Assembly (NCBI GenBank): GCA_963664535.1
Contig: OY761465.1
Location: 1,573,602-1,637,601 of the forward strand
DNA: 64,000 bases
Origin: Candidatus Binatia bacterium
GTDB lineage: Bacteria; Desulfobacterota; Binatia; UBA9968; JAJDTQ01
Direction: 5' to 3'
Numbering within the stretch: the first letter of the stretch is position 1; every line of letters starts with the position of its first letter. Below, one piece after another: positions 4,946 through 63,672 of this stretch. The notes beneath the pieces were generated by a model, which saw only the letters and a list, made by a program, of their open reading frames with translations, did no database searches and was not told the origin of the DNA. The translations under genes were made by a program, and so were the position numbers.

Positions 4946-4989
4946 GCGGGCGCGCTTCTTACCGCGCCCCCTTTCCTCTGGATCCCGGA

Positions 4990-17817: not shown

Positions 17818-17994
17818 GATCCCTGACTTTCAGTGAAAAGAGGTGAGCCCGGAAAGGGAGTGGCCGGACAGCCATCCGGCAGGGCGTGCCTGACGGCAGT
17901 CCGCCGAGGCCCGCCCATCCGGCACACGGACGGAGACCGCCTCCGGCTCACGCTGAGCGCGGCCGGAAAACGGTCTCCCCCATCCAATACGCAA

Positions 17995-27242: not shown

Positions 27243-28112
27243 TCACGTCCGGTACTTCTCGTCCAGGGCGTACTTCTCCTCGAGCCCCACGATGTCGTGG
27301 AAGTCGTCGAACGGCAGCAGCCGGTCCATGAGGGCCTCCGCGGTGCCGGCCTCCCGGAGGTTGGTGTAGTAGCTCTTGAGCGCCTGGGCCGCTGAATAGA
27401 GCGGACCCACGGGCCAGACGATGAGGGCGAAGCCCAGCTCCCCGAGCTCCGCCGGCGTCATCAGCGGCGTGACCCCACGTTCGATCATGTTGGCCACCAG
27501 CGGACCCGGCACGTTGCGGGCGATCTCCCGCATCTCCTCGCGGCTTTCCGGAGCTTCGATGAACACGGCGTCGGCGCCGTTCTCCTTGAAGGCGATGCCG
27601 CGCCGGATGGCCTCGTCGAGGCCCAGGGCTTGGCGCGCGTCGGTGCGGGCCACGATGAAGAGGTCCCCGTCAGCCTTGGTCGCCACCGCCGCATTGAGCT
27701 TCTTGAGGTACTCTTCCAGCGGCACCACCTGCTTGCCCCTCATGTGCCCGCAGCGCTTGGGCCACACCTGGTCCTCCAGGAACATGCCCGCCGCCCCGGC
27801 CCGCATCAGCTCGTTGACGGTACGGACCACGTTCACCGCGTTGCCGTAGCCGGTGTCCGAGTCCACGATGACCGGCGTCGGCACCGCGCCGCAGATGCGG
27901 TAGATGGTGCTCAGCATCTCGGTCTGCGTGAGGATGCCGAAGTCCGGCTCGCCCAGCATGGTCGCCGAGATGCCGTAGCCGGTGGTGAAGATGACGTCGA
28001 AGCCGGCGCGTTGGGCGATGCGCGCGCTCAGGGCATCGTACACCCCGGGCATGACCAGGGTTCCGTTCCGGTCGAGGGCTTCCTTGACTCTGCTCATTTG
28101 GACCTCCAGCAT
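27243..28112 (-). CDS. isocitrate lyase/PEP mutase family protein (PrpB/carboxyvinyl-carboxyphosphonate phosphorylmutase-like)
   Basis: The ICL/PEPM barrel signatures are VMPGVYDALSARIAQRAGFDVIFTTGYG and KRCGHMRGK. An alternative start is at 28097. Confidence 0.75.
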   Translation of the reverse strand: MLEVQMSRVKEALDRNGTLVMPGVYDALSARIAQRAGFDVIFTTGYGISATMLGEPDFGILTQTEMLSTIYRICGAVPTPVIVDSDTGYGNAVNVVRTVNELMRAGAAGMFLEDQVWPKRCGHMRGKQVVPLEEYLKKLNAAVATKADGDLFIVARTDARQALGLDEAIRRGIAFKENGADAVFIEAPESREEMREIARNVPGPLVANMIERGVTPLMTPAELGELGFALIVWPVGPLYSAAQALKSYYTNLREAGTAEALMDRLLPFDDFHDIVGLEEKYALDEKYRT

Positions 28113-28548
28113 GTTTGGTTTGAAGAGAGTGACCCGAACACCAAGCAGGACGCGAAGGAAGTCATCGTCTTTCAGAGTATCCTTCTGAACTGCACGGGAG
28201 TCGAGTCTATCTCATATAGTGACGCAAGACGATGCGCGACCGCACCATTGTAAAACAGGGCTCAACCCATCGCCGTGTGGAGAACTGCGCCATTGGTTCC
28301 AGATAACCGTCAATAAAATCGGTCGGAAACCCTCTGTTCGGATCACGACTACGTAACGCAGGCTCAATTCAAAGAATCTGCTGTCTCTGGGACATGAGGC
28401 AGGAACCTTGAACCGGGTGACCTCAATCAAGTATCTTGACATCCTAGGGACCGTAGGGCGGCGGTACGGAAGACAGGTACCCTTTGGAAAAGCAGAACAG
28501 GCGTGAAAGCCCTAGCCGGGCAACCTCGGTAAGAACAGGGAGAAGAGC

Positions 28549-31245
28549 TTGAGCACGGAAGATCCGTTGGTGACAGCGTTGAGCCTCTCGTCCGGAGCAG
28601 AATTTCAGAAATGCGCGCTCCAGATCAACCCTCGGCACTATTCAGGTACGTATCGCGGCCAGCAGGCAACGCTCGGCGATGACGAATACGTCAGCGCACT
28701 AATAGACAAGGCAATGGACCTCGGAATCACAGTACTGGCGGTAACGGATCACAATCACGTAGGAGGCGTGGATGCGATCAGAATCGCGGCGCAAGAGCAG
28801 AAAATTCACGTGTTTCCTGGTTTCGAGTTGTCATCGACCGAAGGTATCCACGTCCTTTGCCTTTATTCACCAGAAACCACAGAGGAACAACTAGGTCGTT
28901 TTCTCGGCGAGTTCGGCATTCGTGCCACTACGACGTCAAGTGACTTGTGCGACAAGTCTTTCTCCGAACTCCTCGCATGCGTGCATGATCAGGGAGGCAT
29001 TTCCATCGCGGCGCATGTCACACATGACAATGGGTTGCTGCGGACCCTCCAGGGACAGCCTCGGGTCCGTGCCTGGAAGGACGAAAACCTCTACGCCATC
29101 CAAATCCCCGGACCGGTCAACGACCTTCCGGACGACATACGGCCGATCGTTCAAAATAGGAATGGCGACTATTTCCGGGAATACGCACCCGAGCCCGACC
29201 TTGCCATAGCGACAGTTAACGCAAAGGATGTCGCGGCGCCAGACGACCTCGCTGACCCATCGGCTACTTGCTGGATCAAAATGTCCGAGGTCAGCATGGA
29301 AGGCCTGCGCCAAGCATTTCTCGATCCCGGGTCGCGAGTCCGGCTGAACAGCGATCCGGTGCCTGAGGAGCACTCTGAGCTTGTCGCCATGGGATGGCAA
29401 GGGGGCTTCCTGGACGGCACAATGTTCCACTTCAATCCAAATCTGAACGTCTTGGTGGGAGGTCGTGGTGCAGGCAAGTCAACGGTAATCGAAAGCTTGC
29501 GTTATGTACTCGGACTAGAACCGTTAGGTGAAGAGGCCCAATCGGGCCATGCAGGTATTCTCCGTAACGTCCTCCGTAATGGTACCAAGGTGTCTCTCCT
29601 GGTTCGTTGCCATCGCCCAGGGCCGCGAGACTACCGCATCGAACGCACCGTCCCTAATCCGCCGGTCGTACGCGATACTCAGACAGGCGAGGTGCTAAGC
29701 GTAGCGGCGACCAACATTTTTCCCGGTGTAGAGGTCTATGGGCAGCACGAGATTTCGGAACTCACAAAGAGTCCGGAAAAGCTGACCCGGTTGCTTGAGC
29801 GGTTTGTGGAGCGAGACGATTCCGTAGGCAACCAGAAGCGCGAACTGCACCGCGAACTGGAACGCTTGCGTAGTCGGATTCTCGCGGCTCGTAAGGAGCT
29901 CAGCCAGATAGGGGAAAGACTGGACGCTCTGCCAGGACTTGAGGGGACGCTACGGCGCTATCAGGAAGCGGGGTTGGAACAGGACCTGAAAGAACAAAGT
30001 CTTCTGGTACGGGAGGAGGGTGTCCTCGAAACCATACCCGAGCGCCTACAACCGTTGCGGTCCTGCTTGGATGGGTTGCAGCAGGAGTTACCGATTGACC
30101 GGACTTTCCTCTCCCCAAAAGCTCTGGAAGATCTGCCTGGGAAAGCGATCTTGGCTGGTGCCAATCAAGTGTTAGCGAAACTGAACGCCGATCTGGAGAA
30201 AGTGTTACCCGACTTCACTCGGGCACTCGACAAGGCCGAACAGGGTCTCCAAGGTGTCCATCGACAGTTCGGCGAGCGTAGGACCGCGGTGCAAGCAGCG
30301 TACGAGAAGAAGCTTCGGGAACTCCAGAAAGCCAGGATCGACGGTGAGGAGTTCATACGGCTCCGACGTCGGATAGAAGAGTTACGACCCCTCAAAGAAC
30401 GGCAAACGACTCTAGCTCGGATGGAGACGGACCAACAAGAACGACGCCGGAATCTGTTGGCTGAATGGGAGGACATTAAGGCAGCAGAGTTCCGGGCGCT
30501 GGAACGCGCCGGCAAACGTGTCACGCGGAAACTCGAAGGCCGTGTTCGTGTACGTGTCGAGTTTGGCGGAAACCGCGAGGCATTGTTCCAACTCCTCCGT
30601 GATGAGATAGGCGGACGACTGTCCGAGACGATCGACATTCTGCGACAGTCCGACAACTTGTCTCTCAGCGCTTTTGTAAAGGCTTGTCGCCAAGGTCCGG
30701 ACATTCTTCTCACGGAATTCGAAATCTCGGGTGTTCAAGCAGATCGTTTGGCTCAGGCCCCCGACGAGATTCTCATGCAGGTTGAAGAGCTTGACCTCCC
30801 GTCCATCACAAAGATCGAGCTGAACACGGCACCTCCTGACGAAAGGGAAAACTGGCAAGCGCTCGATCAGCTCTCCACTGGCCAAAAGGCAACTGCTGTA
30901 CTGTTGCTCTTGCTACTTGAGTCCGATGCACCACTCGTCGTGGATCAACCGGAGGATGATCTCGACAACCGCTTCATCACAGAAGGAGTTGTCCCGCGTA
31001 TGCGCGACGAGAAACAGCGTCGCCAGTTTCTTTTCTCGACTCATAACGCAAACATTCCAGTCCTCGGAGATGCCGAACTCATCCTAGGTCTCAGCGCATC
31101 GGGAGAAGCGGAAGAAGGGAACGCGAAGATTGCACCGGAACACATGGGTTCTATCGATGCTCAAGCTGTGAGAGAGCTTGTGGAAGAGTTGCTCGAAGGT
31201 GGCGAGGACGCGTTCAAGCGCCGGCGGCGCAAGTACGGATTCTAG
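28549..31245 (+). CDS. PHP-family phosphoesterase domain fused to an SMC/Rad50/RecN-like ABC ATPase with a long coiled coil (Ppl-like architecture)
   Basis: The N-terminus carries PHP motifs (AVTDHNHVGG, AAHVTHDNG). The ATPase part has Walker A GGRGAGKST, a ~300-aa Leu/Glu/Arg-rich coiled coil, signature LSTGQK, Walker B/D-loop VVDQPEDDLD and an H-loop FSTHN. It has a TTG start with a GGGAG RBS. GC is lower than the flanks. Confidence 0.7.
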   Translation: MSTEDPLVTALSLSSGAEFQKCALQINPRHYSGTYRGQQATLGDDEYVSALIDKAMDLGITVLAVTDHNHVGGVDAIRIAAQEQKIHVFPGFELSSTEGIHVLCLYSPETTEEQLGRFLGEFGIRATTTSSDLCDKSFSELLACVHDQGGISIAAHVTHDNGLLRTLQGQPRVRAWKDENLYAIQIPGPVNDLPDDIRPIVQNRNGDYFREYAPEPDLAIATVNAKDVAAPDDLADPSATCWIKMSEVSMEGLRQAFLDPGSRVRLNSDPVPEEHSELVAMGWQGGFLDGTMFHFNPNLNVLVGGRGAGKSTVIESLRYVLGLEPLGEEAQSGHAGILRNVLRNGTKVSLLVRCHRPGPRDYRIERTVPNPPVVRDTQTGEVLSVAATNIFPGVEVYGQHEISELTKSPEKLTRLLERFVERDDSVGNQKRELHRELERLRSRILAARKELSQIGERLDALPGLEGTLRRYQEAGLEQDLKEQSLLVREEGVLETIPERLQPLRSCLDGLQQELPIDRTFLSPKALEDLPGKAILAGANQVLAKLNADLEKVLPDFTRALDKAEQGLQGVHRQFGERRTAVQAAYEKKLRELQKARIDGEEFIRLRRRIEELRPLKERQTTLARMETDQQERRRNLLAEWEDIKAAEFRALERAGKRVTRKLEGRVRVRVEFGGNREALFQLLRDEIGGRLSETIDILRQSDNLSLSAFVKACRQGPDILLTEFEISGVQADRLAQAPDEILMQVEELDLPSITKIELNTAPPDERENWQALDQLSTGQKATAVLLLLLLESDAPLVVDQPEDDLDNRFITEGVVPRMRDEKQRRQFLFSTHNANIPVLGDAELILGLSASGEAEEGNAKIAPEHMGSIDAQAVRELVEELLEGGEDAFKRRRRKYGF

Positions 31246-31254
31246 GGCAACAAA

Positions 31255-32631
31255 GTGACGAAGACAGAGCTTCTGGAGCTGATTGCAAACGGCGAGAACT
31301 CGGGCGTGGACTTTAAGCGCGATGTAATTGACAACCGCGCGCTCGCGAAGGTCCTCGTGGCATTCGCCAACCTGCGGGGTGGACGCCTCCTCCTCGGGGT
31401 GGACGACGATGGAACCGTCCGCGGCCTTACGCGGCAAGATCCACGGTTGGAAACAGAAGAGGATGAGACTGGTCCGCACACGTACCAAGCCCTTGAGGAG
31501 TGGGTGATGCAGGCGTGTCGCGACAAGATCCGCCCCGAGATCATCCCCTACTTCGAAACCTTCCGAGAAGTCGCGCCTGGACGTGACGTGGCTGTCGTAC
31601 AAGTCGGTCGCGGGTGGGGTGTACACCACGTGTGGCACAATCAGCATCGCACCTACTACATCCGCGTCGGGACGTTGAGCCGTGAGGCTAGCCCGGAAGA
31701 ACTGGCGCGGATGTTTCAACAGCGAGGTGCCTTTCGCTTGGAACTACAACCGGTGTCAGGCACTTCGATCGACGACTTGGACCCTCGACGCCTTACTCAA
31801 TATTTTGCGGAGATACGAGAACAGCAAGTCCCGGCATCGAATCCACCTGAGGAGTGGCGTATCGAAACAACGGCATGGGCACGGAACGAGGACCAGAAAC
31901 ATTGGCGGGAACTTGTCGATCAGAGGGAACGAGATTGGTACCGTGAACAGGCAGCCGCATGGAAATCATTGCTCGTCAACACCGAGTTTCTCGCCGAAGA
32001 TGATCCGCAACCTGGGACCGTGGCCGGACTTATGTTGTTTGGTAGCAACCCCAGTCGATTCCTACCCCAAGCGAAGATTGACGCCGCCGCCTACTTCGGT
32101 TCGGTGAAAGACTATGCCGCAAAGGAACGGCGCACGCTGCGGGGACCGCTCGTCAGTTTGAAAGGTGTCGACGGTTCCGTGCTGGAGCCTGGCCTCGTGG
32201 AACAGGCAGTGGAGTTTGTCAGACGGAACATCCAGACGGTGCATCTGGAAGGGGGGATACGCCGCCAAGAACGGTGGGACTACCCGGTCGAGGTCGTTCG
32301 TGAGGTGATCGTCAACGCGGTCGTTCACCGCGATTATCTGCTGTCGAGTTCGGACATCGAACTCAGTGTCTATTCCGACCGGCTTGAGGTCATCTCACCC
32401 GGGCGCTTGGCGAACGGCATCACCACAGAGCGAATGCGAGTCGGATGCAGAAGCGCCCGCAACGAGCTGCTGAAAGACGCCATGCGAGACTACGGTTACC
32501 TCGAGCACATGGGTATGGGCGTACCACGAAAGATCATTCGGGGTATGCAGGAGCAGAACCGCACCGATCCCGACTTTATCGAGGACGACGAACGGTTCAC
32601 TGTACGATTGTGGAAGGATCCGCGGGCCTAG
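31255..32631 (+). CDS. COG2865-type protein: Schlafen-like AlbA_2 (divergent-AAA) N-domain plus a C-terminal HATPase_c_4/RecG-C-like domain
   Basis: The N-terminal motif is ENSGVDFKRDVIDNRALAKVLVAFANLRGGRLLLGVDDDGTV. The C-terminal motif is REVIVNAVVHRDYLLSSSDIELSVYSDRLEVISPGRL. It starts 9 nt after the PHP-ATPase gene. Confidence 0.65.
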   Translation: MTKTELLELIANGENSGVDFKRDVIDNRALAKVLVAFANLRGGRLLLGVDDDGTVRGLTRQDPRLETEEDETGPHTYQALEEWVMQACRDKIRPEIIPYFETFREVAPGRDVAVVQVGRGWGVHHVWHNQHRTYYIRVGTLSREASPEELARMFQQRGAFRLELQPVSGTSIDDLDPRRLTQYFAEIREQQVPASNPPEEWRIETTAWARNEDQKHWRELVDQRERDWYREQAAAWKSLLVNTEFLAEDDPQPGTVAGLMLFGSNPSRFLPQAKIDAAAYFGSVKDYAAKERRTLRGPLVSLKGVDGSVLEPGLVEQAVEFVRRNIQTVHLEGGIRRQERWDYPVEVVREVIVNAVVHRDYLLSSSDIELSVYSDRLEVISPGRLANGITTERMRVGCRSARNELLKDAMRDYGYLEHMGMGVPRKIIRGMQEQNRTDPDFIEDDERFTVRLWKDPRA

Positions 32632-32873
32632 GCGTTCCGAGGATGGTCACAGGCACGGCTGGACTTGAGAAGATCCAATACCGCCAATATTCAAACAACA
32701 GATTTGGAGCGGTTCTGAATCGAGACACAGGCCACGAATCTTCGACAACTCGCTACTGCGTGTCCTTCACCGTTGAAGCCAGGCGAGTTCCAAGTGAACA
32801 ATCGGGCTGAAGCCCCTGACACGACGACGAGCATCCCACGCTGGCCATACGATACGCGTGACCAGTTAATCCG

Positions 32874-33158
32874 CTACTCCGCGGGAATCTCCACGATCAC
32901 GTCGCCGAGCACCTTGGCGACGCAGCCCAGACGCTCGGCGGCATCCGCGCTGAGCATGGACAGCGTCAGCTCCTCATTGTCGTCCATGGGGCTCAGGTTG
33001 TTGTCTCCGGCGAGGATCTTCACCCGGTCCGTGCCGCAGATGGCCTCGGTGCAGTCGTGGCGAAGGGTGACGCCGTTCCGTATGGCCGCCACCAGGATGG
33101 TGGTGCCGTCGTCGACCTCGAAGCTCTGTCCCAGTGGCATGAAAGTGACTCTAGGCAT
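32874..33158 (-). CDS. small hypothetical protein, ferredoxin/beta-grasp-like fold with an incomplete Cys set
   Basis: The N-terminus (RVTFMPLGQSFEVDDGTTIL, HDCTEAIC) is 2Fe-2S-ferredoxin-like, but only three Cys are present. Confidence 0.35.
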   Translation of the reverse strand: MPRVTFMPLGQSFEVDDGTTILVAAIRNGVTLRHDCTEAICGTDRVKILAGDNNLSPMDDNEELTLSMLSADAAERLGCVAKVLGDVIVEIPAE

Positions 33159-52281: not shown

Positions 52282-52304
52282 AAGGGAGGTTTCAAACCCT
52301 CCCG
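52282..52304 (+). terminator. hairpin GGGAGGtttcaaaCCCTCCC after the lectin gene; its right arm begins the ~1.4 kb duplicated segment
   Basis: The stem is 6 bp. The second copy at 62292 lacks the left arm. Confidence 0.3.
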
Positions 52305-52532
52305 TCATTCAAGAGCAGCCATGCTCAGGCATACGCTTGTATCGCCAATAAACATGTGATTTAAGCAGGTTAAGATCGTTTGATACTGCCAAACCACGCC
52401 GTCTCCCACACTCCACTGCGCTCCGATTCCTTCTCTCGTGTTGATTGTGGGGTTGACTATTTCCTGGTCCACGCCTATCATACCCGTGTTTTCCGGTCTC
52501 CCAGCCGATACCCGAATTCGCGAGGTAACCCC

Positions 52533-53795
52533 ATGCAACACGCCGCAAAACTCGTCGCCAAAGTCAAGCTCATGCTGACCAAGAGAACGGTAGACGCTCT
52601 TGAGTCCGAAGACAAGCCCTGGATCGCCTGGGATGACAAGCTGACCGGATTCGGTGTGCGCGTCCACCCCTCCGGAGCCAAGTCCTTCGTCGTGAACTAC
52701 CGTGCCGGCAACGGCGGGCGCAAGGCGCCCAACAAGCGCGTGGTGGTGGGCCGTGTCGGGCGGGTTACCCCGGACCAGGCCAGGCGTCTGGCCCAGGAAC
52801 TCCTGGGGCGCGTGGCCGCGGGAAACGACCCCGCGGGGGAGCGCGCAGAGGCGCGTTCTGTGCCGACCCTGGGAGAGGCGTGCAAGGACTACATGGAGTC
52901 GGGCCATGGGCGCGCGGCCAGCACCGAGCGGGGCTATCGCCGGTATACGGCCTTGTATCTCGGCGACTGGCTGTCCCGCCCACTGGATGCCATCACCCGC
53001 CGGGAGGTGGAGAACCGGTTCAGGTTCCTTACCGAGCGCCACGGAGAGATGCCGGCCAACCAGTGCCTGTCGTTCCTTCGGTCGGTGTACCGCAGGCCCT
53101 GCGTGGACTACGAGGGTCTGCGCAATCCGGTGGAGCAGTGGCTTGCGGCCGGAGGGCGCTACCACCGGAAGACACGGCGGCGGATATCGTCTCCGGCCGA
53201 GGTGCTGCCGTGCTGGCGGAAGGGGCTGGAGGCGGAGGTGGGCAATGCGGTTCACCGGGACGTGGTTCTGTTTGGGCTCTACACGGGGATGCGGCTTGGA
53301 GAGGTCGTGCCGCTTCGGTGGGAGGATGTAGACCTGGATGCCGGGCTTTTCCGGGTGGAGGAGACCAAGACCGGGGCGCCGCTCGAGTTGCCGGTGACGC
53401 GGCAGCTTGGAGAGATACTGGCGCGGCGGCGGGCGGAGGGCCACACGGTTGGGGAGGAGCTTCGCGTGTGGGTGTTTCCGTCGCCGATGAGCGATTCCGG
53501 GCACGTGGAGGAACTCTACCGACACTACGGGGCCATCGGGCGAGCAGGCGGAGCGAAGTTCTGGTTTCACGCGTTGCGGAACTGCTTCATCACGGTGGCG
53601 GAGCGGGAGTTGATGCTGCCGCGGTCGTTGACGAAGCGTCTGGTGAACCATGCCCGGCCCGGTGACGTGACCGAGGGCTACGCCGCGGACTGGACGGTGG
53701 AGCAGTTGCGAGAGCCTGCGCAACGGGTCGCGAACCGCATCGATGAGTTGATGGCCCGACAGGTGCCGACCGTGCCTCACTCGCTTGGGAAGTGA
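52533..53795 (+). CDS. int: tyrosine-type site-specific integrase, P4-like with N-terminal DUF4102 arm-binding domain
   Basis: The DUF4102 region is DKLTGFGVRVHPSGAKSFVVNYR. The catalytic residues are present (R in GMRLGEV, HALRN, and Y in the GYAA tail). Confidence 0.85.
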   Translation: MQHAAKLVAKVKLMLTKRTVDALESEDKPWIAWDDKLTGFGVRVHPSGAKSFVVNYRAGNGGRKAPNKRVVVGRVGRVTPDQARRLAQELLGRVAAGNDPAGERAEARSVPTLGEACKDYMESGHGRAASTERGYRRYTALYLGDWLSRPLDAITRREVENRFRFLTERHGEMPANQCLSFLRSVYRRPCVDYEGLRNPVEQWLAAGGRYHRKTRRRISSPAEVLPCWRKGLEAEVGNAVHRDVVLFGLYTGMRLGEVVPLRWEDVDLDAGLFRVEETKTGAPLELPVTRQLGEILARRRAEGHTVGEELRVWVFPSPMSDSGHVEELYRHYGAIGRAGGAKFWFHALRNCFITVAERELMLPRSLTKRLVNHARPGDVTEGYAADWTVEQLREPAQRVANRIDELMARQVPTVPHSLGK

Positions 53796-54016
53796 CATGC
53801 GCGCGACGAGGCACATCCAACGGCTCCCGGAACAGCAGGTTGTGTCAAACAGGACCCTGGCGGCGTGATCCTTTACACCGGAATACACCTTACCTCCGCC
53901 GCCTCCCTGTCCCACAACCAGGACCACTTCATGATCCAACAAGAGTCTGGCGGCGGAAGGCGGTGGTTGCGCAGAGAGCCGTGGGTCAAGGGTGCGAATG
54001 GCGCCACCAGCATCGG

Positions 54017-54034
54017 GGATGCGTGGGGTGTGAG
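54017..54034. repeat. 18-nt direct repeat GGATGCGTGGGGTGTGAG (copy 1 of 2; second at 58304-58321), a candidate att core
   Basis: The match is exact over 18 nt and extends to a 28-nt near-match (GCATCsssGGATGCGTGGGGTGTGAG). It flanks the nuclease-like gene plus the two tandem integrases. Confidence 0.45.
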
Positions 54035-54259
54035 GAGAAAAGACTCCGCATGGAGTCAGATGGGCGATTGTGCCCTGCACACCGTCATTGGGTGGAACAG
54101 CCTGCGCCGCAAGAGTTTGGAGCCTTCGCGGCGATTGAGCGAGACGACCGGGCCGCAGTGTCCGAGCGAGTTCCGCATCGCCTTCCAGGCAACAGAGGTA
54201 ACAGACCGTACCGTACGGTGCAAGCACGAAGCGAGGCGTTTCACACACCGCGCACCGAA

Positions 54260-54480
54260 GGTTCGGTGTTACCGTCCGTCAACGGACGGGTTGCACTTGT
54301 TACCGCGAATCGTCAAGACGAGGTTCACATGTTACCGGAGACTTGAGTAGCGTGGTGAAGTGACCGGTGCACGAGGTCGTGCATGGTCCGGTGCACACGT
54401 TTGGAGTTACCGCGCATGAACCTGACGGTTAGGTTCTCGTTACCCGTCCTCACACTGCAAGCGGTCGTGCACTGCACGAT
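54260..54480. repeat. repeat- and palindrome-rich non-coding region (4x GTTACCG, palindromes CCGTCCGTcaaCGGACGG and CGTGCACTGCACG)
   Basis: GTTACCG occurs at 54268, 54298, 54332 and 54406. Several short perfect palindromes are present. There is no credible ORF across 53.8-54.66 kb. Confidence 0.45.
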
Positions 54481-54663
54481 GCAGACCGGCCTGCGGACAC
54501 CACTTGCATAAGCAACACCAGTTCTTCCCACGTCACTTGATGGCTTGATGGCGACTTACCCCTGATGTACCGACGTACCGCGGTGGAGGGATCGGCTTAG
54601 GCGGCGCTGGTGGCGCTTGCGGTGCCGGAGCGAGAAAAGTGGACCGCGACGGTCACGTTTTCG

Positions 54664-55536
54664 TTACTTCTCCGCACCGTGTACGCGGTCGTGGACGCCC
54701 GCTGCGAGAAGGTCTTCGATCACTTCTTTGAGTTCGACCACCGCAAGTGGACATTCTGGCCAATTGTGCTGCCAGCAGACGATCAAATCGCACTTCGCCG
54801 GGTCGTGTCCATGGTCCAAGAAGGTACGAGACATAAACTCAAACTCGATCCGCACACGCTGCCATCGGTCTTTCTTTCGATCGACGAGGCGCTTCGCCTC
54901 GCAGTCGGGGAAGGAGGCGTGTACAGCTTCGACGAGGAAGCCGAGTTCACGGCTGACCATGCCAAAGAGAAAGACGACTCCTAGCTCGTTGATCGGAGCG
55001 TGCCTCAGTCCGCGAAAGTCGATTGGGGCGCCGAACTGCGGTCCGCCACTGTTGCCCAGATGGACGTAAGGTTCCGGCGAGACAGTCTTGGTCTGTTTCA
55101 CTGGCGGTTGTCCTGATTCGTGCGATCCATCAAGTTGGCTCAACAGCGGAGACTGTGGCTCGTTTCGAACGAGCCATGCTCTGTACCTAGCCAGTAGACC
55201 ACTTCGGCCGCCGAAGCGGCGGCTAACGACTCCGTCTGAAATCAGACTGTGATGGTTGAACTGGTTCAACGTAGGGATCCGCCCAAGGCCCGATGCCACC
55301 GAATGGAACTCGCTCAGAAGTTCGTCATCCTCCAGGCGCTCGCGATGCCTGGGATGTTTCGGGATGCCAGCGCGCTCCTTGAGTTCCGACCACCCACCAT
55401 CAGGGAAGAGACGGTAGATTTGACGCTGGCTGATCCCGGAGATGCGCTCGAAGTCTGATCGCGACAGCGGTTGCCCTTGCTTCTCACTTGCGTGTTGGGC
55501 TTCCTGGATCAGATCGTTCTGTGTGAGCTGGCTCAT
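54664..55536 (-). CDS. hypothetical protein with an N-terminal HTH-like region and a C-terminal DUF559/Vsr-like (PD-(D/E)XK) endonuclease-like domain
   Basis: The C-terminus (FPDCEAKRL ... RVRIEFEF ... HGHD ... DLIVCWQHNW) parallels the DUF559 pattern (DFaClEAKL ... vEvDG.qH ... GwrVlRfwn). Confidence 0.45.
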   Translation of the reverse strand: MSQLTQNDLIQEAQHASEKQGQPLSRSDFERISGISQRQIYRLFPDGGWSELKERAGIPKHPRHRERLEDDELLSEFHSVASGLGRIPTLNQFNHHSLISDGVVSRRFGGRSGLLARYRAWLVRNEPQSPLLSQLDGSHESGQPPVKQTKTVSPEPYVHLGNSGGPQFGAPIDFRGLRHAPINELGVVFLFGMVSRELGFLVEAVHASFPDCEAKRLVDRKKDRWQRVRIEFEFMSRTFLDHGHDPAKCDLIVCWQHNWPECPLAVVELKEVIEDLLAAGVHDRVHGAEK

Positions 55537-55717
55537 GCTCCATGTCCCTCACGGCGGTCCTTGTCTAGCGCAGGCGTGTACATTCAGCGTGGCGCTTGTA
55601 CTCAGGCCACCGTCCAAGACTCGGCTGCGGGGCCTCAGAACCGCCCAAAAGGCGATCTTATTTTTTATCACACATTGTAGGGCCACGTACATTACCGATC
55701 CGTCCTCCTTCTGCGTC

Positions 55718-56977
55718 TTAATCGGATAGCTGGTGCGACGGATCGAGACCAGGAGGAACTGGTGGACCGGAGAGTCTGGCCTGTGGTTCAATCTGCGAGG
55801 GCGGCGTCTCGGCCCGAAAGCCCATGGCGCAGGCGATGACTGCAGCCGCCTGCTTGGCCGCACCCTGTAGCGCGATATCGTCGAGGTGGGCGTAGATGGC
55901 GGTTGTGGCGCGCTTGCGGTGTCCGAGCAGGCGGCCCACCGTGGTCAGCCCTACGCCGTTCATGACACCCTGGGAGGCGTAGGTGTGGCGGGTGTCGTGG
56001 ATTCGGACGCCTTGCAACCCGGCTTCCTGGCGAATCGCGCACCAGAAGCTGTAGAGCCTGCCTGGGGTGAGATCCTCGGGGAACACCCGCCCGTCGCCCT
56101 CCAGGCGGGGAAGGGCCGCGAGCACCTTTACCGCTTGCGGTCCGAGCCACAGGGTGCGCGGTCCGGTCTTGGAGTCCGGGAGGCGGACGCTTGCGCCGTC
56201 CCCGGACAGCTTCCCGATCTCGTCCCACCGGAGGTTCAACACCTCGGAGAGCCGCGCGCCGGTGAGGGTGAGGAGGTGGAGCGCAGCCACGGGCCAGGGA
56301 CGCTTCGCACGGCATGCATCAAGGACTGCGCCAAGGCGTTCCAGTTCTTCGCGGGTGAGATGGCGCGCGACCGGTCTTCTGGGGTTCATGACGATGTTGG
56401 CGCAGGGGTCGGGAGCGTCCTCGGACACCTCGCCCCACTGGCGCGCCGTGCGCAGCATGGCGCGGAGGATCTCGAAGGCGCGGTTGGCCGCGCCGGGCCG
56501 GTCGACGCTGGCGGAGTCGAACCACGCGGAGACCCGCGCATGGTCGATGCGATCGAGCCGCAGTCGGCCGAAGGCGGGCATGAGCCTCTGCCGCATGTAG
56601 CTGTCGTGGGCTTTGAGCGAGGACGGCTTGCAGCGGCTCCTGAGCCGCTCGCGGTAGCGGGCGGCGAAGTCGCCGAAGAGCGCCGGCCTGGGCCTGTGGC
56701 CGGGCACCGTGGCGTCGCCTGCCCAGATACGGGCGAGCACTTTGGCAGCCTCCCTTCGCGCATCGGCGAGGGGGGTCTCTGGGAAGCGCCCGAGGGTGAG
56801 CTTGCGCATCCGGCCCCGCACGCGGGTCTGGACGATGAAGGAGCGCACGCCCGAGGGCTGCACCCTGACTCCGAAGTGAGCGAGCGCGCCGTCCCAGAGC
56901 GTGTACTCGGTCCGCCTCGGCTTGGCGGCTGCAATGGCGCTAACGGTCAACGGCTTCTTGCCCTGCCTACGATCCAT
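55718..56977 (-). CDS. tyrosine-type integrase, P4-like (DUF4102 N-domain), downstream member of a tandem pair
   Basis: The DUF4102 region is WDGALAHFGVRVQPSGVRSFIVQ. The catalytic residues are present (R in GARLSEV, HDTRHT, and Y in AIYAHL). A GGAGG RBS lies upstream. Confidence 0.85.
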   Translation of the reverse strand: MDRRQGKKPLTVSAIAAAKPRRTEYTLWDGALAHFGVRVQPSGVRSFIVQTRVRGRMRKLTLGRFPETPLADARREAAKVLARIWAGDATVPGHRPRPALFGDFAARYRERLRSRCKPSSLKAHDSYMRQRLMPAFGRLRLDRIDHARVSAWFDSASVDRPGAANRAFEILRAMLRTARQWGEVSEDAPDPCANIVMNPRRPVARHLTREELERLGAVLDACRAKRPWPVAALHLLTLTGARLSEVLNLRWDEIGKLSGDGASVRLPDSKTGPRTLWLGPQAVKVLAALPRLEGDGRVFPEDLTPGRLYSFWCAIRQEAGLQGVRIHDTRHTYASQGVMNGVGLTTVGRLLGHRKRATTAIYAHLDDIALQGAAKQAAAVIACAMGFRAETPPSQIEPQARLSGPPVPPGLDPSHQLSD

Positions 56978-58115
56978 GACGCCCCTCCTTCCTGCTTCCG
57001 GTCATCGCCGCCTCAACGATGCCGCCGATGCGGCCCGCAGCCTCCCGGACGTGGTCGTCGGCAAGGTGAGCATAGCGGTCGGTGGAGGCGATGTCCGCAT
57101 GGCCGAGCAAGCGGCCCACCGTATAGAGGTCGATGCGGCTCATGACCGCGTGGGAGGCCAGAGTATGACGGAAGTCGTGTATGCGCACGTCCTCCAGACC
57201 CGCCAGCCTTCGCAGCTTCTGCCAGCGAAGCCCGAGATCGTTCATCGGCCCGGAGCCCGTTGTGTTGGGAAAGACGTAGCGTGAGACACGCGGCACTCCG
57301 GAGAGCACCGCTCGGGCGGGTGGCGGAAGCTGGATGGTCTTCGGGCCGGTCTTCGAATCCGGCAACAGCGCCCGGGCGCCGCGTATCCAGTCCCACCGAA
57401 GGCCGGTGATCTCGGACGACCGCGCGCCGGTGAACAGCAGGAGACGGATCACGGCGACGGCCTGACTGTCCTCGGCATGGTCGAGCACGAAGCCGAGGCG
57501 TTTCAACTCCTCCACGGAGAGGAACCGCTCCCTGGCCCCAGTCCTGTAGCGGCGCATGTTACGGCAGGGGTTGGAGCCCTGGGGGCGAATGTCCCACAGT
57601 TCGGCCTGGGCGAGCATGACGGAGAGCACGGGCAGCGCTCGGTTGGCGGTGGCGGGAGAGCTGCTCAGGGAATCGAACCAGCGCTGCACGTCGGCGCGGG
57701 AGATTTCGGGGACGCGCATGAAGCCGAAGAAGGGCAGGAGTTGGTTCTTGAGCACGGAGCTGTTGCTCTGGCGGGTGGAGGGCTTCCAGCGCCTGGACTG
57801 GCGGCGCATGAATTCGTCCGCGAAGTCCTGGAACAGGGGTCCGGCCTTGTGCTCGGCCGTGGCGGCGTCGATAGCGGCGACGGCTCGATCACGCGCCTGG
57901 GCGGCGGTCAGTTCAGCGGTCGTGCCGAGGGTGAGATTGACCGCGCTCGGGGCTCGCTTCACGCGGACGAAGAAGGTCCTCGAATCGTCGGCTGCGATCT
58001 TGAGGCCGAAGGCGGGCAGGGTGTGATCGAGGACGATGAGCGGGCGCTTCCGGTGCCTGGGCTCGGCGAACTTTCGGTTGATGGTTCTTTCATTGAGATT
58101 TGCGAAGATGCGCAT
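56967..58115 (-). CDS. tyrosine-type integrase, P4-like (DUF4102 N-domain), upstream member of the tandem pair; overlaps the next gene by 11 nt
   Basis: The DUF4102 region is LPAFGLKIAADDSRTFFVRV. The catalytic residues are present (R in GARSSEI, HDFRHT, and Y in DRYAHL). The start is MRIFANL at 58115, with a GGGAGG RBS. The track ORF extends to 58160. Confidence 0.8.
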   Translation of the reverse strand: MRIFANLNERTINRKFAEPRHRKRPLIVLDHTLPAFGLKIAADDSRTFFVRVKRAPSAVNLTLGTTAELTAAQARDRAVAAIDAATAEHKAGPLFQDFADEFMRRQSRRWKPSTRQSNSSVLKNQLLPFFGFMRVPEISRADVQRWFDSLSSSPATANRALPVLSVMLAQAELWDIRPQGSNPCRNMRRYRTGARERFLSVEELKRLGFVLDHAEDSQAVAVIRLLLFTGARSSEITGLRWDWIRGARALLPDSKTGPKTIQLPPPARAVLSGVPRVSRYVFPNTTGSGPMNDLGLRWQKLRRLAGLEDVRIHDFRHTLASHAVMSRIDLYTVGRLLGHADIASTDRYAHLADDHVREAAGRIGGIVEAAMTGSRKEGRHGS

Positions 58116-58303
58116 GTGGCTGCCTCCCATAGTTGTTCCCTCGAATGCCACCGGTTCCAAGGAAACAACGGCGGCGGTTCACGGAAGGAGATGCAGCCCG
58201 TGCAGGGACAGGGGGGTGAGTGGCCGTGACGCCCTAACGCAGCGTTAAAGCGGAAGAAATCGTCCGTATGGCTGGTCGGGAAAGTCTCGCTCAAGGCATC
58301 CCG

Positions 58304-58321
58304 GATGCGTGGGGTGTGAGA
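58304..58321. repeat. 18-nt direct repeat GGATGCGTGGGGTGTGAG (copy 2 of 2)
   Basis: It is identical to 54017-54034. It lies ~190 nt upstream of the tandem-integrase start. Confidence 0.45.
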
Positions 58322-58808
58322 ACCCTTAACGGGCGCCAGCCCGTCCAAGAAGGGGGATTGGCCGCTGGGCTACGATGTCGGGGAGGAGTGCATGGACGGT
58401 CAGCAAGGCAAAGCCGCCGTGGCGATTGAACGGTGCCGGTGTCGCGTTGCACGGGACATTGCGATTGGGCGCTGCACCGCCACGGGTACAGAGTCGGACA
58501 CGCTGCCGGGGGCGTGCCGGAGCAATTATGTCCGACGACGGGAACGACGCTCACCCGTGTCGGCATCACCGCGGACGGCGTGATGGTGGAAGATGACGAC
58601 TCGGCATCTCGCGGTTGAGATCGGCACGAGCACAGGGACGCCTGCTCATGCTTGTAGTTGTCGTCCCTGTGCTGTCCCGGCAGCGTGACAACCACGGACA
58701 CCGGCGACACGCGGGCATCCCATCCACAGGTGATTGACGCCATTGACACGCCGTGCCTGGTCGCTGTACAAATCTGGATGAATGGCAACACTCAACGGAG
58801 GCTCGGCG

Positions 58809-59210
58809 ATGAGGACGTTTCTTGTAGTACTGATTGCAGCGCTACTCATGGTTGGCGGCACGACCGTTGCTCATGCAGGGGACTGCAGTGGGATGTCTGT
58901 CGAGAAGGCCCGCAATATCCTCCTTGAAGAGAGCCCCACTCGCACAGAGTACCCCTGTGCGGCGAAGCGGGTAAAACAGGATATCAAGGCATGCCTGGAG
59001 TTTTTTAAGCAGGACGAATGTACGGGCCCAGCTAAAGTTTGGTTGAATGCATGGGACAAGTTAAAACCGCAACCCTCCGAGGAGTCAAGTTCCGTCAAGT
59101 CCTTGGCGTTGTCGACGCCGTCAATCCTGAAACCGCGTGCTCCCTTTGCGAAATCTATCACGGACTATTTGCGTGAGACGCCCTATCCGTACGGCCGTGC
59201 GCCCCGATGA
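58809..59210 (+). CDS. small secreted hypothetical protein (signal peptide, Cys-containing)
   Basis: The signal peptide is MRTFLVVLIAALLMVGGTTVAHAG. A GGAGG RBS lies upstream. GC is lower than the backbone. Confidence 0.45.
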   Translation: MRTFLVVLIAALLMVGGTTVAHAGDCSGMSVEKARNILLEESPTRTEYPCAAKRVKQDIKACLEFFKQDECTGPAKVWLNAWDKLKPQPSEESSSVKSLALSTPSILKPRAPFAKSITDYLRETPYPYGRAPR

Positions 59211-59767
59211 GCATGCCGGAACCGGCCACAAACGCATCAAACGGTTCACCATCGGGCACGGGCAACGGTACCGAGGGAGGGCGGTTCGGCCGGTTGAGCA
59301 GGGATCCAGGTGCCGTCACCCCTGGCTTGGCCGCAGCGGTCCTCGGTTTTACTGTTGGCGCGCTGACTGGCGTCTCCGGTCCTGACGCTGTAGTGCTGGC
59401 TGCGGTTCTGCCCGCAGTCCTGTCGGCTGCCGGTCCCACCGCTGTCTTTCTCGTAAGCAGAGGAGATGGTGGCACACGCCGCATGCGTGCCGTCAGTGGC
59501 CTGATCGTCCTGTTTTCCGTTGGTATCCTCGTCGGCGCCCCTTTCGGATCTTGGTACAAGGACTACAGTGAGAGAAGCGCGTTCAATGACGCGCTGAAGA
59601 AAGCGGAGGTCGCCCGGCAGGCTATCAGAGTCCGTCATTTCGAGGATCTGAGGGACTGCACAATCTTAGAACACCAAGTGAGTACTCAGCGTGATCGCCT
59701 TGATCTGCCGCCGGTCACAATCTCACAGGTTTGCCCGTTCCTCGACGATCCGAATTCCGGCAGATGA
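59207..59767 (+). CDS. hypothetical membrane protein (3-4 TM, Gly/Ala-rich)
   Basis: It is coupled to the upstream gene by an ATGA overlap. Hydrophobic helices are present (AAVLGFTVGALTGV, VVLAAVLPAVLSAAG, LIVLFSVGILVGAPFG). Confidence 0.45.
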   Translation: MSMPEPATNASNGSPSGTGNGTEGGRFGRLSRDPGAVTPGLAAAVLGFTVGALTGVSGPDAVVLAAVLPAVLSAAGPTAVFLVSRGDGGTRRMRAVSGLIVLFSVGILVGAPFGSWYKDYSERSAFNDALKKAEVARQAIRVRHFEDLRDCTILEHQVSTQRDRLDLPPVTISQVCPFLDDPNSGR

Positions 59768-59970: not shown

Positions 59971-61124
59971 GTGTCCTGTCCGATTAATTAGTTGAAGAAC
60001 AATGGAGTGTGTCGTACCATGGGAAGAAAGGACAGGAGGGCACCATGGCACGACCCCCAGCGGCGATCGTTTTGAGCGAGGAGGAGAAGGCGGAGCTAGA
60101 AAGATGGAGTCGGCGGCGCAATACGCGAGCGGGTCTTCATCTACGAGCGGGCGTGGTTTTGGATTGCGCGCGAGGTTACACCGGGGAGGAGGTGGCGAAG
60201 CGACACCACACGAGCCAGCAGACGGTGTCGAAGTGGCGGGGGCGGTTCGCCCGAGAGCGACTGGCGGGACTGTCCGATGCGGTGCGAAGCGGCCAGCCGC
60301 GCAAGCACAACGACGTACGGGTGCAGGAAGTGTTGGACGCGACACTGAATCGACGGCCGAAGCATGCCACGCACTGGAGCGTTCGGAGTTTATCCGAGGA
60401 CCTGGATGTGCCACGGGATTTCGTTCATCGTGTATGGCGGGCATTCGGGCTCAAACCTCACTTGTCTCGGAACTTCAAGCTATCCACCGATCCGCACTTC
60501 ATCGACAAGGTGCGGGACGTGGTGGGTCTTTATCTGAATCCGCCGGACAACGCGCTGGTGTTGTGCGTGGATGAGAAAAGCCAGATTCAGGCATTGGACC
60601 GTACCCAACCCGGTTTACCGCTGAACTACGGCACACCCGAGACCCGGACCCATGACTATCGGCGCTATGGCACCACCACGCTGTTCGCCGCACTGGAGGT
60701 GGCTACGGGTCGAGTGGTGGGCAAGCTGCACCGCCGGCACAGAAGCCAAGAGTTCACCGCTTTCTTGCGCCACATCGACTCGCAGGTCCCGGCCGCCTTG
60801 GAAGTCCACCTCATTCTCGACAACTACGGCACCCACAAGACCACCCAAGTCAAGAACTGGCTGTTGCGACACCCCCGATTCCACTGTCATTTCATCCCCA
60901 CCTACAGTTCCTGGATGAACTTGGTGGAGCGCTTCTTCGCAACCTTGACCGAACACCAGTTACGCCGCGGCACCTACCGCTCCGTGGTCGCTCTGGAGAA
61001 AGCCATACGAAATTACCTCGACCTGCACAATCAACATCCCAAGCCGTTTCGTTGGACCAAGTCCGCTGACGCCATCATTGACTCTGTCACCAGTGTTATT
61101 AAACGAATTAACCAGACACCACAC
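59971..61124 (+). mobile_element. IS630-family insertion sequence (1154 bp) with imperfect ~21-bp TIRs and a TA target-site duplication
   Basis: The left end is GTGTCCTGTCCGATTAATTAG. The reverse complement of the right end is GTGTGGTGTCTGGTTAATTCG (16/21 match). TA flanks both ends at 59969-70 and 61125-26. It contains a single DDE transposase gene. Confidence 0.7.
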
Positions 61125-61127
61125 TAG
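60045..61127 (+). CDS. IS630-family transposase (HTH + DDE)
   Basis: The N-terminal HTH is [21 protein letters not shown]. The DDE region spans [14 protein letters not shown] ... [10 protein letters not shown] ... [19 protein letters not shown] precedes the ATG at 60045. The stop lies within the right TIR. Confidence 0.85.
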
Positions 61128-62291: not shown

Positions 62292-63672
62292 GTTTCAAAC
62301 CCTCCCGTCATTCAAGAGCAGCCATGCTCAGGCATACGCGAGTCCGAAGACAAGCCTTGGATCGCCTGGGATGACAAGCTGACCGGATTCGGTGTGCGCG
62401 TCCACCCCTCCGGAGCCAAGTCCTTCGTCGTGAACTACCGTGCCGGCAACGGCGGGCGCAAGGCGCCCAACAAGCGCGTGGTGGTGGGCCGTGTCGGGCG
62501 GGTTACCCCGGACCAGGCCAGGCGTCTGGCCCAGGAACTCCTGGGGCGCGTGGCCGCGGGAGACGACCCCGCGGGGGAGCGCGCAGAGGCGCGTTTTGTG
62601 CCGACCCTGGGAGAGGCGTGCAAGGACTACATGGAGTCGGGCCATGGGCGCGCGGCCAGCACCGAACGGGGCTATCGCCGGTATACGGCCTTGTATCTCG
62701 GCGACTGGCTGTCCCGCCCACTGGATGCCATCACCCGCCGGGAGGTGGAGAACCGGTTCAGGTTCCTTACCGAGCGCCACGGAGAGATGCCGGCCAACCA
62801 GTGCCTGTCGTTCCTTCGGTCGGTGTACCGCAGGCCCTGCGTGGACTACGAGGGTCTGCGCAATCCGGTGGAGCAGTGGCTTGCGGCCGGAGGGCGCTAC
62901 CACCGGAAGACACGGCGGCGGATATCGTCTCCGGCCGAGGTGCTGCCGTGCTGGCGGAAGGGGCTGGAGGCGGAGGTGGGCAATGCGGTTCACCGGGACG
63001 TGGTTCTGTTCGGGCTCTACACGGGGATGCGGCTTGGAGAGGTCGTGCCGCTTCGGTGGGAGGATGTAGACCTGGATGCCGGGCTTTTCCGGGTGGAGGA
63101 GACCAAGACCGGGGTGCCGCTCGAGTTGCCGGTGACGCGGCAGCTTGGAGAGATACTGGCGCGGCGGCGGGCGGAGGGCCACACGGTTGGGGAGGAGCTT
63201 CGCGTGTGGGTGTTTCCGTCGCCGATGAGCGATTCCGGGCACGTGGAGGAACTCTACCGACACTACGGGGCCATCGGGCGAGCAGGCGGAGCGAAGTTCT
63301 GGTTTCACGCGTTGCGGAACTGCTTCATCACCGTGGCGGAGCGGGAGTTGATGCTGCCGCGGTCGTTGACGAAGCGTCTGGTGAACCATGCCCGGCCCGG
63401 TGACGTGACCGAGGGCTACGCCGCGGACTGGACGGTGGAGCAGTTGCGGGAGCCTGCGCAACGGGTCGCAACCCGCATCGATGAGTTGATGGCCTGACAG
63501 GTGCCCACCGTACCTCACTCGCCGGGGAAGTGACATGCGCGCGACGAGGCACATCCAACGGCTCCCGGAACAGCAGGTTGTGTCAAACAGGACCCTGGCG
63601 GCGTGATCCTTTACACCGGAATACACCTTAACTCCGCCGCCTCCCTGTCCTACAAACCAGGACCACCTCACG
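62292..63672 (+). repeat. segmental direct repeat of 52290-53930 (integrase region), ~98% identical, with a ~263-nt internal deletion
   Basis: The block 62292-62339 equals 52290-52337. From 62340 onward the sequence matches 52603 onward with scattered mismatches. Similarity ends near 63672/53930. Confidence 0.8.
62340..63497 (+). pseudogene. 5'-truncated, nonsense-mutated duplicate of the P4-like integrase gene
   Basis: It lacks the start codon and the first ~23 codons of the 52533 gene. It has a premature TGA (CGA->TGA) at 63495-63497 that removes the last 11 codons. Confidence 0.7.

Follow-up and report, generated by a model that had tools for sequence, protein, structure and literature searches.

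Towards the right-hand end of the 64-kb window considered here (the whole stretch of contig OY761465.1, from a Candidatus Binatia bacterium, that was analysed), two copies of a short direct repeat enclose a segment of about 4.3 kb with a nuclease-like gene and two tandem integrase genes. Is this segment a mobile element, and if it is, what sort of site has it entered? Our data support the view that the repeats are attL and attR, the attachment (att) sites at the ends of a ∼4.3-kb integrative element with its integrases at one end. The repeat does not look like an arbitrary chromosomal target: judged by its sequence, it is the nick core of a MOB-F-type origin of transfer (oriT) together with one arm of the hairpin that belongs to it. 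To the reading as a whole, in which the element is integrative and probably mobilizable, its core is the MOB-F nick core and its integrases insert attP at that core, we give a probability of about three in four.

The exact 18-mer GGATGCGTGGGGTGTGAG occurs twice in the window, both times on the plus strand, at 54017–54034 and 58303–58320, and no further copies with up to three mismatches were found elsewhere in it. Two matches were reached in none of 100 dinucleotide-preserving shuffles (mean 0.07), which rules out a chance origin of the pair. The sequence-only reading from which we started had found this repeat and placed its first copy correctly, but its coordinate for the second (58304) is off by one; the 28 nt that it allowed for the near-direct repeat was generous, as the extended repeat measures 25 nt with 23 of 25 positions identical (54010–54034 versus 58296–58320). 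Both mismatches are located in the loop of a 5-bp hairpin (GCATC-GGG-GATGC in copy 1, GCATC-CCG-GATGC in copy 2), and past the GAG that closes the repeat just one of the next three bases is identical. The same reading had proposed a nuclease-like gene and two tandem integrases between the repeats, and we indeed find there a gene for an HNH_repeat protein and two overlapping genes for full-length tyrosine integrases (int2 and int3). It had also put the downstream copy ∼190 nt from the start of the integrase operon; the distance is 188 nt from the ATG of int3 at 58115, which is the start of the database protein P0001, or 143 nt from the TTG of the longest open reading frame (ORF). Its proposal of attL and attR of a nested integrative element is now supported by homology boundaries, by the relatives' own repeats, by empty sites of relatives and by the intact integrases.

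An exact scan of 185,579 species genomes (596 Gb) returned 19 matches to GGATGCGTGGGGTGTGAG, with ∼17 expected by chance. We consider it a real conserved site not because of this count but because the flanks of about 14 of the 19 matches are conserved, across very different phyla. The remaining five (L001, L010, L012, L014 and L015 in the L numbering used here for loci) are chance-like, with neither the hairpin nor conserved flanks, and were rejected.

The boundaries of the element are best seen by comparison with relatives. We picked contigs solely by homology to int3, namely L020, L021/L022, L023, L024 and three plasmids (L057, L058, which is pSBAL17501 of Shewanella baltica BA175, and L059), and in every one of them int3 is followed by int2. 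In these seven loci GCGT-NN-GGTGTG is found upstream of int3 on the opposite strand, ∼150–190 nt away, with the exception of L059, where the core adjoins the annotated int3 start. Five elements found by the motif (L003, L028/31, L046, L050 and L053) have the same arrangement, and the integrase pair with a core ∼150–190 nt upstream is thus present in 12 independent loci. DNA homology of the window to L021/L022, L023, L020 and L024 begins in copy 1 at 54023, with the G that opens GTGGGGTGTG, and stops at 58322/58323, just beyond copy 2; at 77–86% DNA identity, homology to these relatives is lost exactly at both cores. The element accordingly extends from 54023/54035 to 58320. Each relative is flanked by direct core repeats of its own (GATGCGTGGGGTGTGA in L003, GTGGGGTGTG in L021/L022, TGCGTTAGGTGTGA in L024 and GCGTGGGGTGTGG in pSBAL17501), and in the subfamily of the window the end sequence can be written as GTCTCGCTCA-N-GGCAYC-NNN-GRTGC-GT(GG/TA)GGTGTGAG. 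Cargo varies from element to element and includes HEPN with IS1595, HigB/helix-turn-helix genes with an Eco57I-type enzyme, a Dcm/Vsr/restriction endonuclease set and a BstXI-type restriction-modification system.

Unoccupied sites, a search for which had been suggested with the sequence-only reading, exist for three relatives. Once the element is removed from L003, a Thermodesulfobacteriota chromosome, the sequence is colinear with the Binatia loci L002 and L013 (82–87% identity over ∼380 nt across the junction), and L031 treated in this way is colinear with L045 and L033 (94% over ∼590 nt). The clearest situation is that of pSBAL17501, which without its element aligns in one piece with pS19502 of strain OS195, NC_009661 and NC_009998 (100% cover, 96–98% identity), while occupied plasmids match the element-free query in two pieces.

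Both integrases appear intact. The int2 product has arm-binding, SAM-like and catalytic domains with all catalytic residues present (R242, K270, H327xxR330, H353 and Y362); int2 and int3 are both full-length and both keep R..K..HxxR..H..Y. They are paralogues with 39% identity, and their tandem arrangement is kept across the family. The int3 product is identical to P0001 over 382 aa. Its homologues number more than 3000 at E ≤ 1e–20 and more than 120 at ≥68% identity, and the family is found in cultured Shewanella, sphingomonads and roseobacters as well as in many uncultured lineages.

The nature of the core follows from its likeness to the F plasmid. The nick region of F oriT consists of the hairpin GCAAAAACTTGTTTTTGC followed by GTGGGGTGT/GGT (here and below the slash marks the nick); shortly downstream, after a few bases, there is another inverted repeat (PMC2504302, PMC3074121). 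The attL core of the window matches F oriT GCGTGGGGTGT/GG (PMC2504302, PMC3074121), and the hairpin GCATC-NNN-GATGC is directly followed by GTGGGGTGT and GAG, in the register seen in F. In that register the window shares 11 nt with the F nick region (GCGTGGGGTGTG), and the Shewanella site shares 16 nt with it (TTGCGTGGGGTGTGGT). The relaxase nick is thus predicted between 54031 and 54032 in attL, that is GTGGGGTGT/GAG, and between 58317 and 58318 in attR.

Genomic context points in the same direction. Scanning metagenomes for the motif gave 32 further sites. At single-copy sites, genes for a type IV coupling protein (T4CP), a TrwC/TraI relaxase and a ribbon-helix-helix (RHH) protein are found on one side of the motif and leading-region genes on the other. 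For example, the order in L041 is TrwB-type T4CP, TrwC relaxase (Pfam, 3e–87), NYN, NikA-like RHH and motif; in L044 it is TrwC, RHH, motif, YAcAr, DUF7146/Toprim and single-strand binding protein; and in pS19502, typed as MOBF/MPF_F, traD and traI precede the site, which is followed by an ArdC-like gene and, further on, by ParB and the rest of the leading region. Such a transfer-gene neighbourhood is present in the relatives L041, L044, L025, L039 and pS19502, and not in the window, where the relaxase side has been replaced by a unit with a different integrase gene (intA). What is left of the left flank is nevertheless recognisable: 53935–54034 is 95% identical to L002, a Binatia metagenome-assembled genome (MAG), and 90% to L003, and in relatives this flank runs on into an RHH gene and a TrwC relaxase gene. 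The left hairpin and its flank also occur in the single-copy sites L002, L007, L013, L034 and L039.

Hairpins are placed as in F. In almost all sites a second hairpin lies 6–9 nt past the core, with at least 12 different stem sequences (scored with our own script), and the left stem shows a compensatory change from GCATC/GATGC to GCACC/GGTGC in sites with the core variant GTTAGGTGT, L020 and L024 among them. Folding as single-stranded DNA (ssDNA) predicts both hairpins with the core unpaired between them, while RNAalifold on 33 sites recovered only the left one; the right hairpin, of variable spacing, is misaligned by MAFFT. From homology and context we conclude that the motif is probably the nick region of MOB-F-type origins of transfer. 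A structured-RNA reading of the motif was dropped given the match to F oriT and the relaxase neighbours.

Two observations concern these sites in general. Among L025–L056 the nick core is the exact point at which one left flank meets at least three unrelated right flanks, and right flanks with different left flanks are seen as well, so these oriTs appear to be hot spots that exchange flanking modules. To the right of single-copy cores (L002 in oriented coordinates 4170–5150, L004, L007, L008 and L013) there is ∼1 kb of purine-rich DNA that reaches up to the YAcAr gene; it has no convincing ORF and contains dispersed 120–200-nt repeats, and it may hold single-strand promoters or other leading-region signals.

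Where do the strands change partners? At the ends of L031 the sequences are GTGG-GGTGTGA-G (attL) and GTTA-GGTGTGA-A (attR), with the differences around the common part segregating with the flanks, and in L021 the repeat common to both ends is only GTGGGGTGTG. These junctions therefore place the exchange within roughly GGTGTG(A), a segment whose length suits the overlap region of a tyrosine recombinase and which brackets the predicted nick GGTGT/G. About six of the 18 identical bases (GGATGC) are a hairpin arm common to the two oriT-like partner sites and lie outside the exchanged segment. When the ends of the element are joined in silico (58284–58320 with 54035–54065), the reconstructed attP has all that characterises these oriTs, namely a left hairpin borne by the element, then the core, the right hairpin GACTCC-GCAT-GGAGTC and lastly the GGGCGAT box.

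We propose the following scheme. The excised circle would carry an attP that resembles a small but complete oriT (a left hairpin, GTGGGGTGT/GAG, then a right hairpin and a GGGNGAT box), as suggested by the reconstructed junction. The products of int2 and int3, probably as a heteromeric pair on the asymmetric core, would carry out recombination between attP and a nick core, either that of a resident MOB-F oriT or a look-alike, with the crossover confined to about GGTGTG(A), bracketing the predicted nick. Upon insertion a copy of the nick core would be left at each junction, which is what the sequence contains, and other core-containing sequences might be used now and then. The element could afterwards be carried by its conjugative host or be mobilised alone by the relaxase of the host. 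The orientation of the element is fixed, and its genes therefore point the same way as leading-region genes; from its place directly 3' of the attL nick it would enter the recipient ahead of all other DNA.

A bolder version can be put forward tentatively, as possible rather than probable: att site and oriT could be one functional site. In such a case attP would be a working MOB-F oriT, a helper relaxase would mobilise the circle and the integrase pair would re-insert it at a nick site. With a nick site on either side, the element could be cut out and transferred by the relaxase alone, starting at attL and ending at attR, with no need for an excisionase, and the same two sites would let the host plasmid transfer without the element. 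The integrase pair would then re-insert it at the extreme leading edge of a MOB-F element of the recipient, and methylase, restriction or defence cargo would enter and be expressed first. If this is true, 'nick-site hunters' exist in Proteobacteria, Binatia, Thermodesulfobacteriota and others, and couple site-specific recombination to conjugative DNA processing.

The structure may be real and yet the integrases may have had no part in it. A MOB-F relaxase could have made the insertion, and any excision, by oriT–oriT strand transfer at the nick site (nic), with the integrases serving another purpose or none. The crossover segment GGTGTG(A) does contain the predicted nick, and TrwC of R388 can integrate DNA site-specifically, the target being either a copy of oriT or a minimal nick-like sequence (PMC3264647). 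Besides, the joining of the same left flank to at least three right flanks exactly at the motif is what oriT–oriT recombination would give, and the distal junction of L021 needs only ∼10 nt of core. However, both integrase genes are retained in 12 of 12 independent elements, and their order, their orientation and their distance to the core are constant. If the pair were irrelevant to the junctions, its conservation over 36–100% protein identity and in several phyla would be difficult to account for. Both integrases of the window retain their catalytic residues, and the element encodes no relaxase (there is no relaxase domain between 54035 and 58302). We therefore hold a relaxase origin of the insertion to be unlikely.

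Less credit still is due to the idea that the likeness of the att core to the F nick is a coincidence and the motif merely a conserved recognition site of the integrases. It could draw on the fact that nicking of the core is predicted from sequence, with no relaxase gene found among the window ORFs scanned, and on insertion sites that are not obviously oriTs, such as the distal junction of L021. It would have to explain away the identity to the F nick region over 11 nt in the window and 16 nt in Shewanella with the hairpin in the same register, the F-like second hairpin downstream of the core, and integrase-free sites between relaxase/T4CP genes and the leading region of MOBF/MPF_F plasmids and on TrwC-encoding contigs; we regard it as very improbable. 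Slightly weaker again is the case for two oriT remnants of different conjugative elements that happen to lie near each other, with the genes between them forming no discrete unit. The surroundings are a mobile mosaic with two intA copies, an IS630-type transposase gene and no housekeeping genes from 52.3 to 63.7 kb, and the flanks of copy 1 and copy 2 are not homologous, as would be expected of such remnants. Yet homology to four related elements ends precisely at both cores, the same bounded unit is found in unrelated contexts with empty sites for three relatives, and the hairpin of copy 2 with the 200 nt upstream of it is the conserved integrase-proximal end in all members, which leaves next to nothing for this explanation.

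Several points do weigh against an integrase-driven insertion into an oriT. The right flank, from 58321 onward, is without a BLAST match in the fetched loci and is likened to the right half of an oriT through its hairpin and box only; no unoccupied site that joins the two flanks of the window's element was found in the fetched set. No relaxase, T4CP, type IV secretion system or other mating-pore genes were detected among the window ORFs scanned, and no helper is thus in view, nor was an excisionase gene recognised in the element. The left hairpin offers little independent covariation, with compensatory changes in just 4 of 33 sequences, because most sites were retrieved with a pattern that fixes this hairpin. 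The distal junction of L021 lacks a hairpin, and oriTs are therefore not the sole targets. Finally, that insertion was the work of the integrases and not of a relaxase is our inference, and nicking at the core by these relaxases is predicted from identity to F.

Features of the locus and of its immediate surroundings (window coordinates)
Feature	Position	Strand	Evidence or remark
intA unit, copy A	52289–53931	+	P4-type integrase ORF 52380–53795; Pfam; context, not part of the element
Left (relaxase-side) flank, remnant of a putative MOB-F-type oriT region	53935–54009	+	Cut off at 53932–53934 by the intA unit
Left inverted repeat of the target oriT, hairpin GCATC-GGG-GATGC, part of attL	54010–54022	+	Direct reading; predicted ssDNA fold
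attL core GTGGGGTGTGAG	54023–54034	+	F oriT match; first base shared with related elements at 54023
Conserved distal end of the element	54035–54307	+	Homology to relatives
Right inverted repeat GACTCC-GCAT-GGAGTC	54042–54057		Within the distal end, which also has the GGGCGAT box
Cargo gene, 290-aa HNH_repeat protein	54664–55536	-	Pfam PF18780, 2e–13
int2, tyrosine recombinase, 419 aa	55718–56977	-	Pfam Arm-DNA-bind_3, Phage_int_SAM_3, Phage_integrase
int3, paralogous tyrosine recombinase	56967–58160	-	11-nt overlap with int2; likely start ATG 58115 (382 aa)
Region upstream of int3, int-proximal arm	58116–58295		Conserved blocks in an alignment of ten family members
Conserved block GTCTCGCTCA	58284–58293		Within the int-proximal arm
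Element-borne left inverted repeat, hairpin GCATC-CCG-GATGC, part of attR	58296–58308	+	Same position in every family member
attR core GTGGGGTGTGAG	58309–58320	+	Homology to relatives ends at 58322–58323
Flank to the right of the element, resembling the right half of an oriT	58321–58360	+	Hairpin ACGGGC-GCCA-GCCCGT 58329–58344; GGGGGAT box 58352–58358
IS630-type transposase gene	60009–61127		

A hairpin in the register of the one in the right flank is present in more than 40 sites with over 12 different stem sequences, and the box is also visible in sites from the metagenome scan. Inside the element, the distal end is conserved to a notable degree: 54023–54307 is 87% identical to L021/L022, and 54094–54278 is 79% identical to L024. 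A block of ∼110 nt within it (54100–54215) is ∼90% identical among the window, L021 and L024, whose integrase genes are only 77–86% identical. The distal end gave no Pfam or Rfam match above family threshold, and the sole Rfam match in the block was below it (ncS025, a small RNA, E = 0.17). A small minus-strand ORF (54056–54244) is open in the window, L021 and L024; it gave neither a Pfam family above threshold nor a homologue among the fetched loci. The block could contain arm-type integrase sites, a directionality factor or a small RNA. In pSBAL17501 the distal end (17949–18389) shows three units ∼220 nt apart, each made of a core-like GCGTG(GG/AA)GTGTGG followed by a similar stretch (...ccaaggtggcattt...).

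The cargo segment (54308–55733) is unique to the window and missing from related elements. Its protein has two N-terminal HNH_repeat repeats, of the kind associated with homing endonucleases, and a C-terminal domain of ∼120 aa without a Pfam match; no PADLOC, NCBIfam or PDB match was obtained for the protein, which forms a cluster of its own at 90% clustering. Since relatives carry restriction-modification, toxin-antitoxin or HEPN cargo at that position, this may be a nuclease or defence gene not yet characterised.

The window is chromosomal and carries AddAB-like helicase-nuclease genes, TctA and molybdoenzymes; its last 12 kb are a patchwork of mobile DNA. The intA unit (1.64 kb) is repeated there 10 kb apart in direct orientation (52289–53931 and 62292–63670, 98.6% identical), and copy B is without 265 nt (52337–52601 of copy A), among them the start codon and a portion of the arm-binding domain. 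The two ends of the unit read GTTTCAAACCC...CCAGGACCACTTCA, with no target duplication seen, and it contains only the integrase gene. A homologue with 66–70% identity lies 2.4 kb from the oriT core in L049/L056. As the intA unit ends at 53931 and oriT-region homology starts at 53935, only 82 nt of the relaxase-side flank are left, and the target oriT of the window is a remnant with its relaxase side replaced by the intA unit 82 nt to the left. The element thus sits within a chromosomal patch of decayed mobile DNA but, with both integrase genes intact, itself looks intact. To the right, ORFs 58782–59210 and 59207–59767 have no Pfam match above threshold, no PADLOC family and no homologue in the fetched loci. 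Plasmids yielded no match either to 52–64 kb by megablast or to the oriT flank of L002 in a search for distant similarity.

Other explanations of the repeats or of their surroundings were discarded on the way. The window has no tRNA or tmRNA gene that could be a target; no Rfam family reached its gathering score, whether in the window or in the 12 related loci scanned, which sets aside a known RNA family; and the minus-strand ORF 52305–54248, which covers copy 1, is an antisense shadow of the intA gene with no Pfam match.

Far from the element, positions 28001–33000 of the window form an island of low GC content (0.54–0.59 versus ∼0.67 around) with genes for two proteins, one of 898 aa that has PHP and AAA (AbiEii-like/SMC) domains, the other a Schlafen/AlbA_2 protein that has a RecG-C-like HATPase domain; it is probably a defence island.

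Hitchhikers on conjugative plasmids and integrative and conjugative elements (ICEs) drive much of horizontal gene flow, and how most islands move is obscure. An element whose recombination core is the nick core would be guaranteed to land on a transfer-competent replicon, and in the first DNA that enters a new cell. It appears that elements of this family insert into transfer origins and probably exploit them. Transfer origins would then also be recombination hot spots at which flanks are shuffled, and the family cargo recovered so far, mostly restriction-modification, toxin-antitoxin and other defence genes, would stand at the leading edge of conjugative elements. The conserved core with its hairpin can serve as a marker of MOB-F oriTs in unannotated genomes. 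Occupied and empty plasmids of Shewanella baltica are a ready experimental system, and together with the breadth of the family (>3000 integrase homologues) and the coincidence of att and nick they make the mechanism directly testable.

How does the element compare with known systems? Side-by-side paralogous tyrosine recombinases, two or more of them, are familiar from XerC/XerD at dif, from TnpA/TnpB of Tn554, from recombinase-in-trio (RIT) elements and from GInt. The element resembles these in its adjacent paralogous recombinases, which plausibly act jointly on an asymmetric core. Against the XerC, XerD and XerS families of NCBIfam, int2 and int3 reach at best 46–65 bits with cut-offs of 220–335, which places them outside these families. 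RIT elements have three adjacent recombinase genes, and GInt has three plus ginD, all of specific subfamilies; the element has just two, both with P4-type arm-binding domains, and belongs to neither. A classic RIT is present at 2103–5265 of L020, an Alphaproteobacteria MAG contig, where it lies with an IS91-type transposase between two inverted oriT-like regions; this contig also bears a tandem-integrase element, and the trio is an unrelated unit.

The features of the core are those of F oriT with TraI and R388 oriT with TrwC: a hairpin immediately 5' of GTGGGGTGT, a nick after the last T and a second inverted repeat downstream, with TrwC/TraI and T4CP genes as neighbours in the relatives. Unlike in F, the hairpin stems are different, the bases after the nick are GAG in the window instead of GGT, and the copies in the window are not attached to transfer genes. 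The outcome is also similar to TrwC-mediated oriT recombination, in which two oriT copies are joined at or near nic and a segment is flanked by direct oriT repeats (PMC3264647). The reaction described there needs only the relaxase, whereas a conserved integrase pair accompanies every instance of our element.

Islands that contain only an oriT (iOriTs) have recently been described in six nosocomial species (Ares-Arroyo et al., bioRxiv 2026, 10.64898/2026.01.13.699239). Like them, the element is an att-delimited island with an integrase and an oriT-like site, without relaxase or mating-pore genes and often with defence genes near oriT; by the operational definition of that study it would be an iOriT, having integrases, att sites, a predicted oriT-like attP and no relaxase or mating-pair formation genes. 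In iOriTs as described, however, oriT and att are separate and the islands occupy chromosomal spots, while in our case the att site is itself the oriT-like site, and insertion is preferentially into the oriT of another element. The text of that study does not mention an att site that coincides with oriT.

The closest parallel in behaviour is offered by the integrative mobilizable elements termed IME_oriTs of streptococci and staphylococci, which insert in the oriT of a helper ICE (Libante et al. 2020, PMC7563843; reviewed in PMC5704250). They too are small, encode a tyrosine integrase and are bounded by direct repeats; as proposed for our element, they are integrative and mobilizable, target the oriT of a host element and occasionally other sites, and use a conjugative element as both host and helper. 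IME_oriTs, in contrast, are found in Firmicutes, target oriTs of MobT (Rep_trans) ICEs and have one integrase, an excisionase and a relaxase of their own. In our case there are two paralogous integrases, no relaxase was found and no excisionase is recognisable, the targets are MOB-F (TraI/TrwC) oriTs in Proteobacteria and other Gram-negative phyla, and the att core coincides with the nick core. Lacking a Rep_trans/MobT relaxase and targeting TrwC/TraI oriTs, the element works similarly to IME_oriTs and is not a member of this group. A literature search of incomplete coverage found no work linking the core to an integrase site, and returned only F-plasmid papers, IME_oriT work and oriTDB. A large tandem-integrase family that uses the MOB-F nick core as its attachment core is thus apparently undescribed, and for integration targeted to oriT as such there is precedent in Firmicutes.

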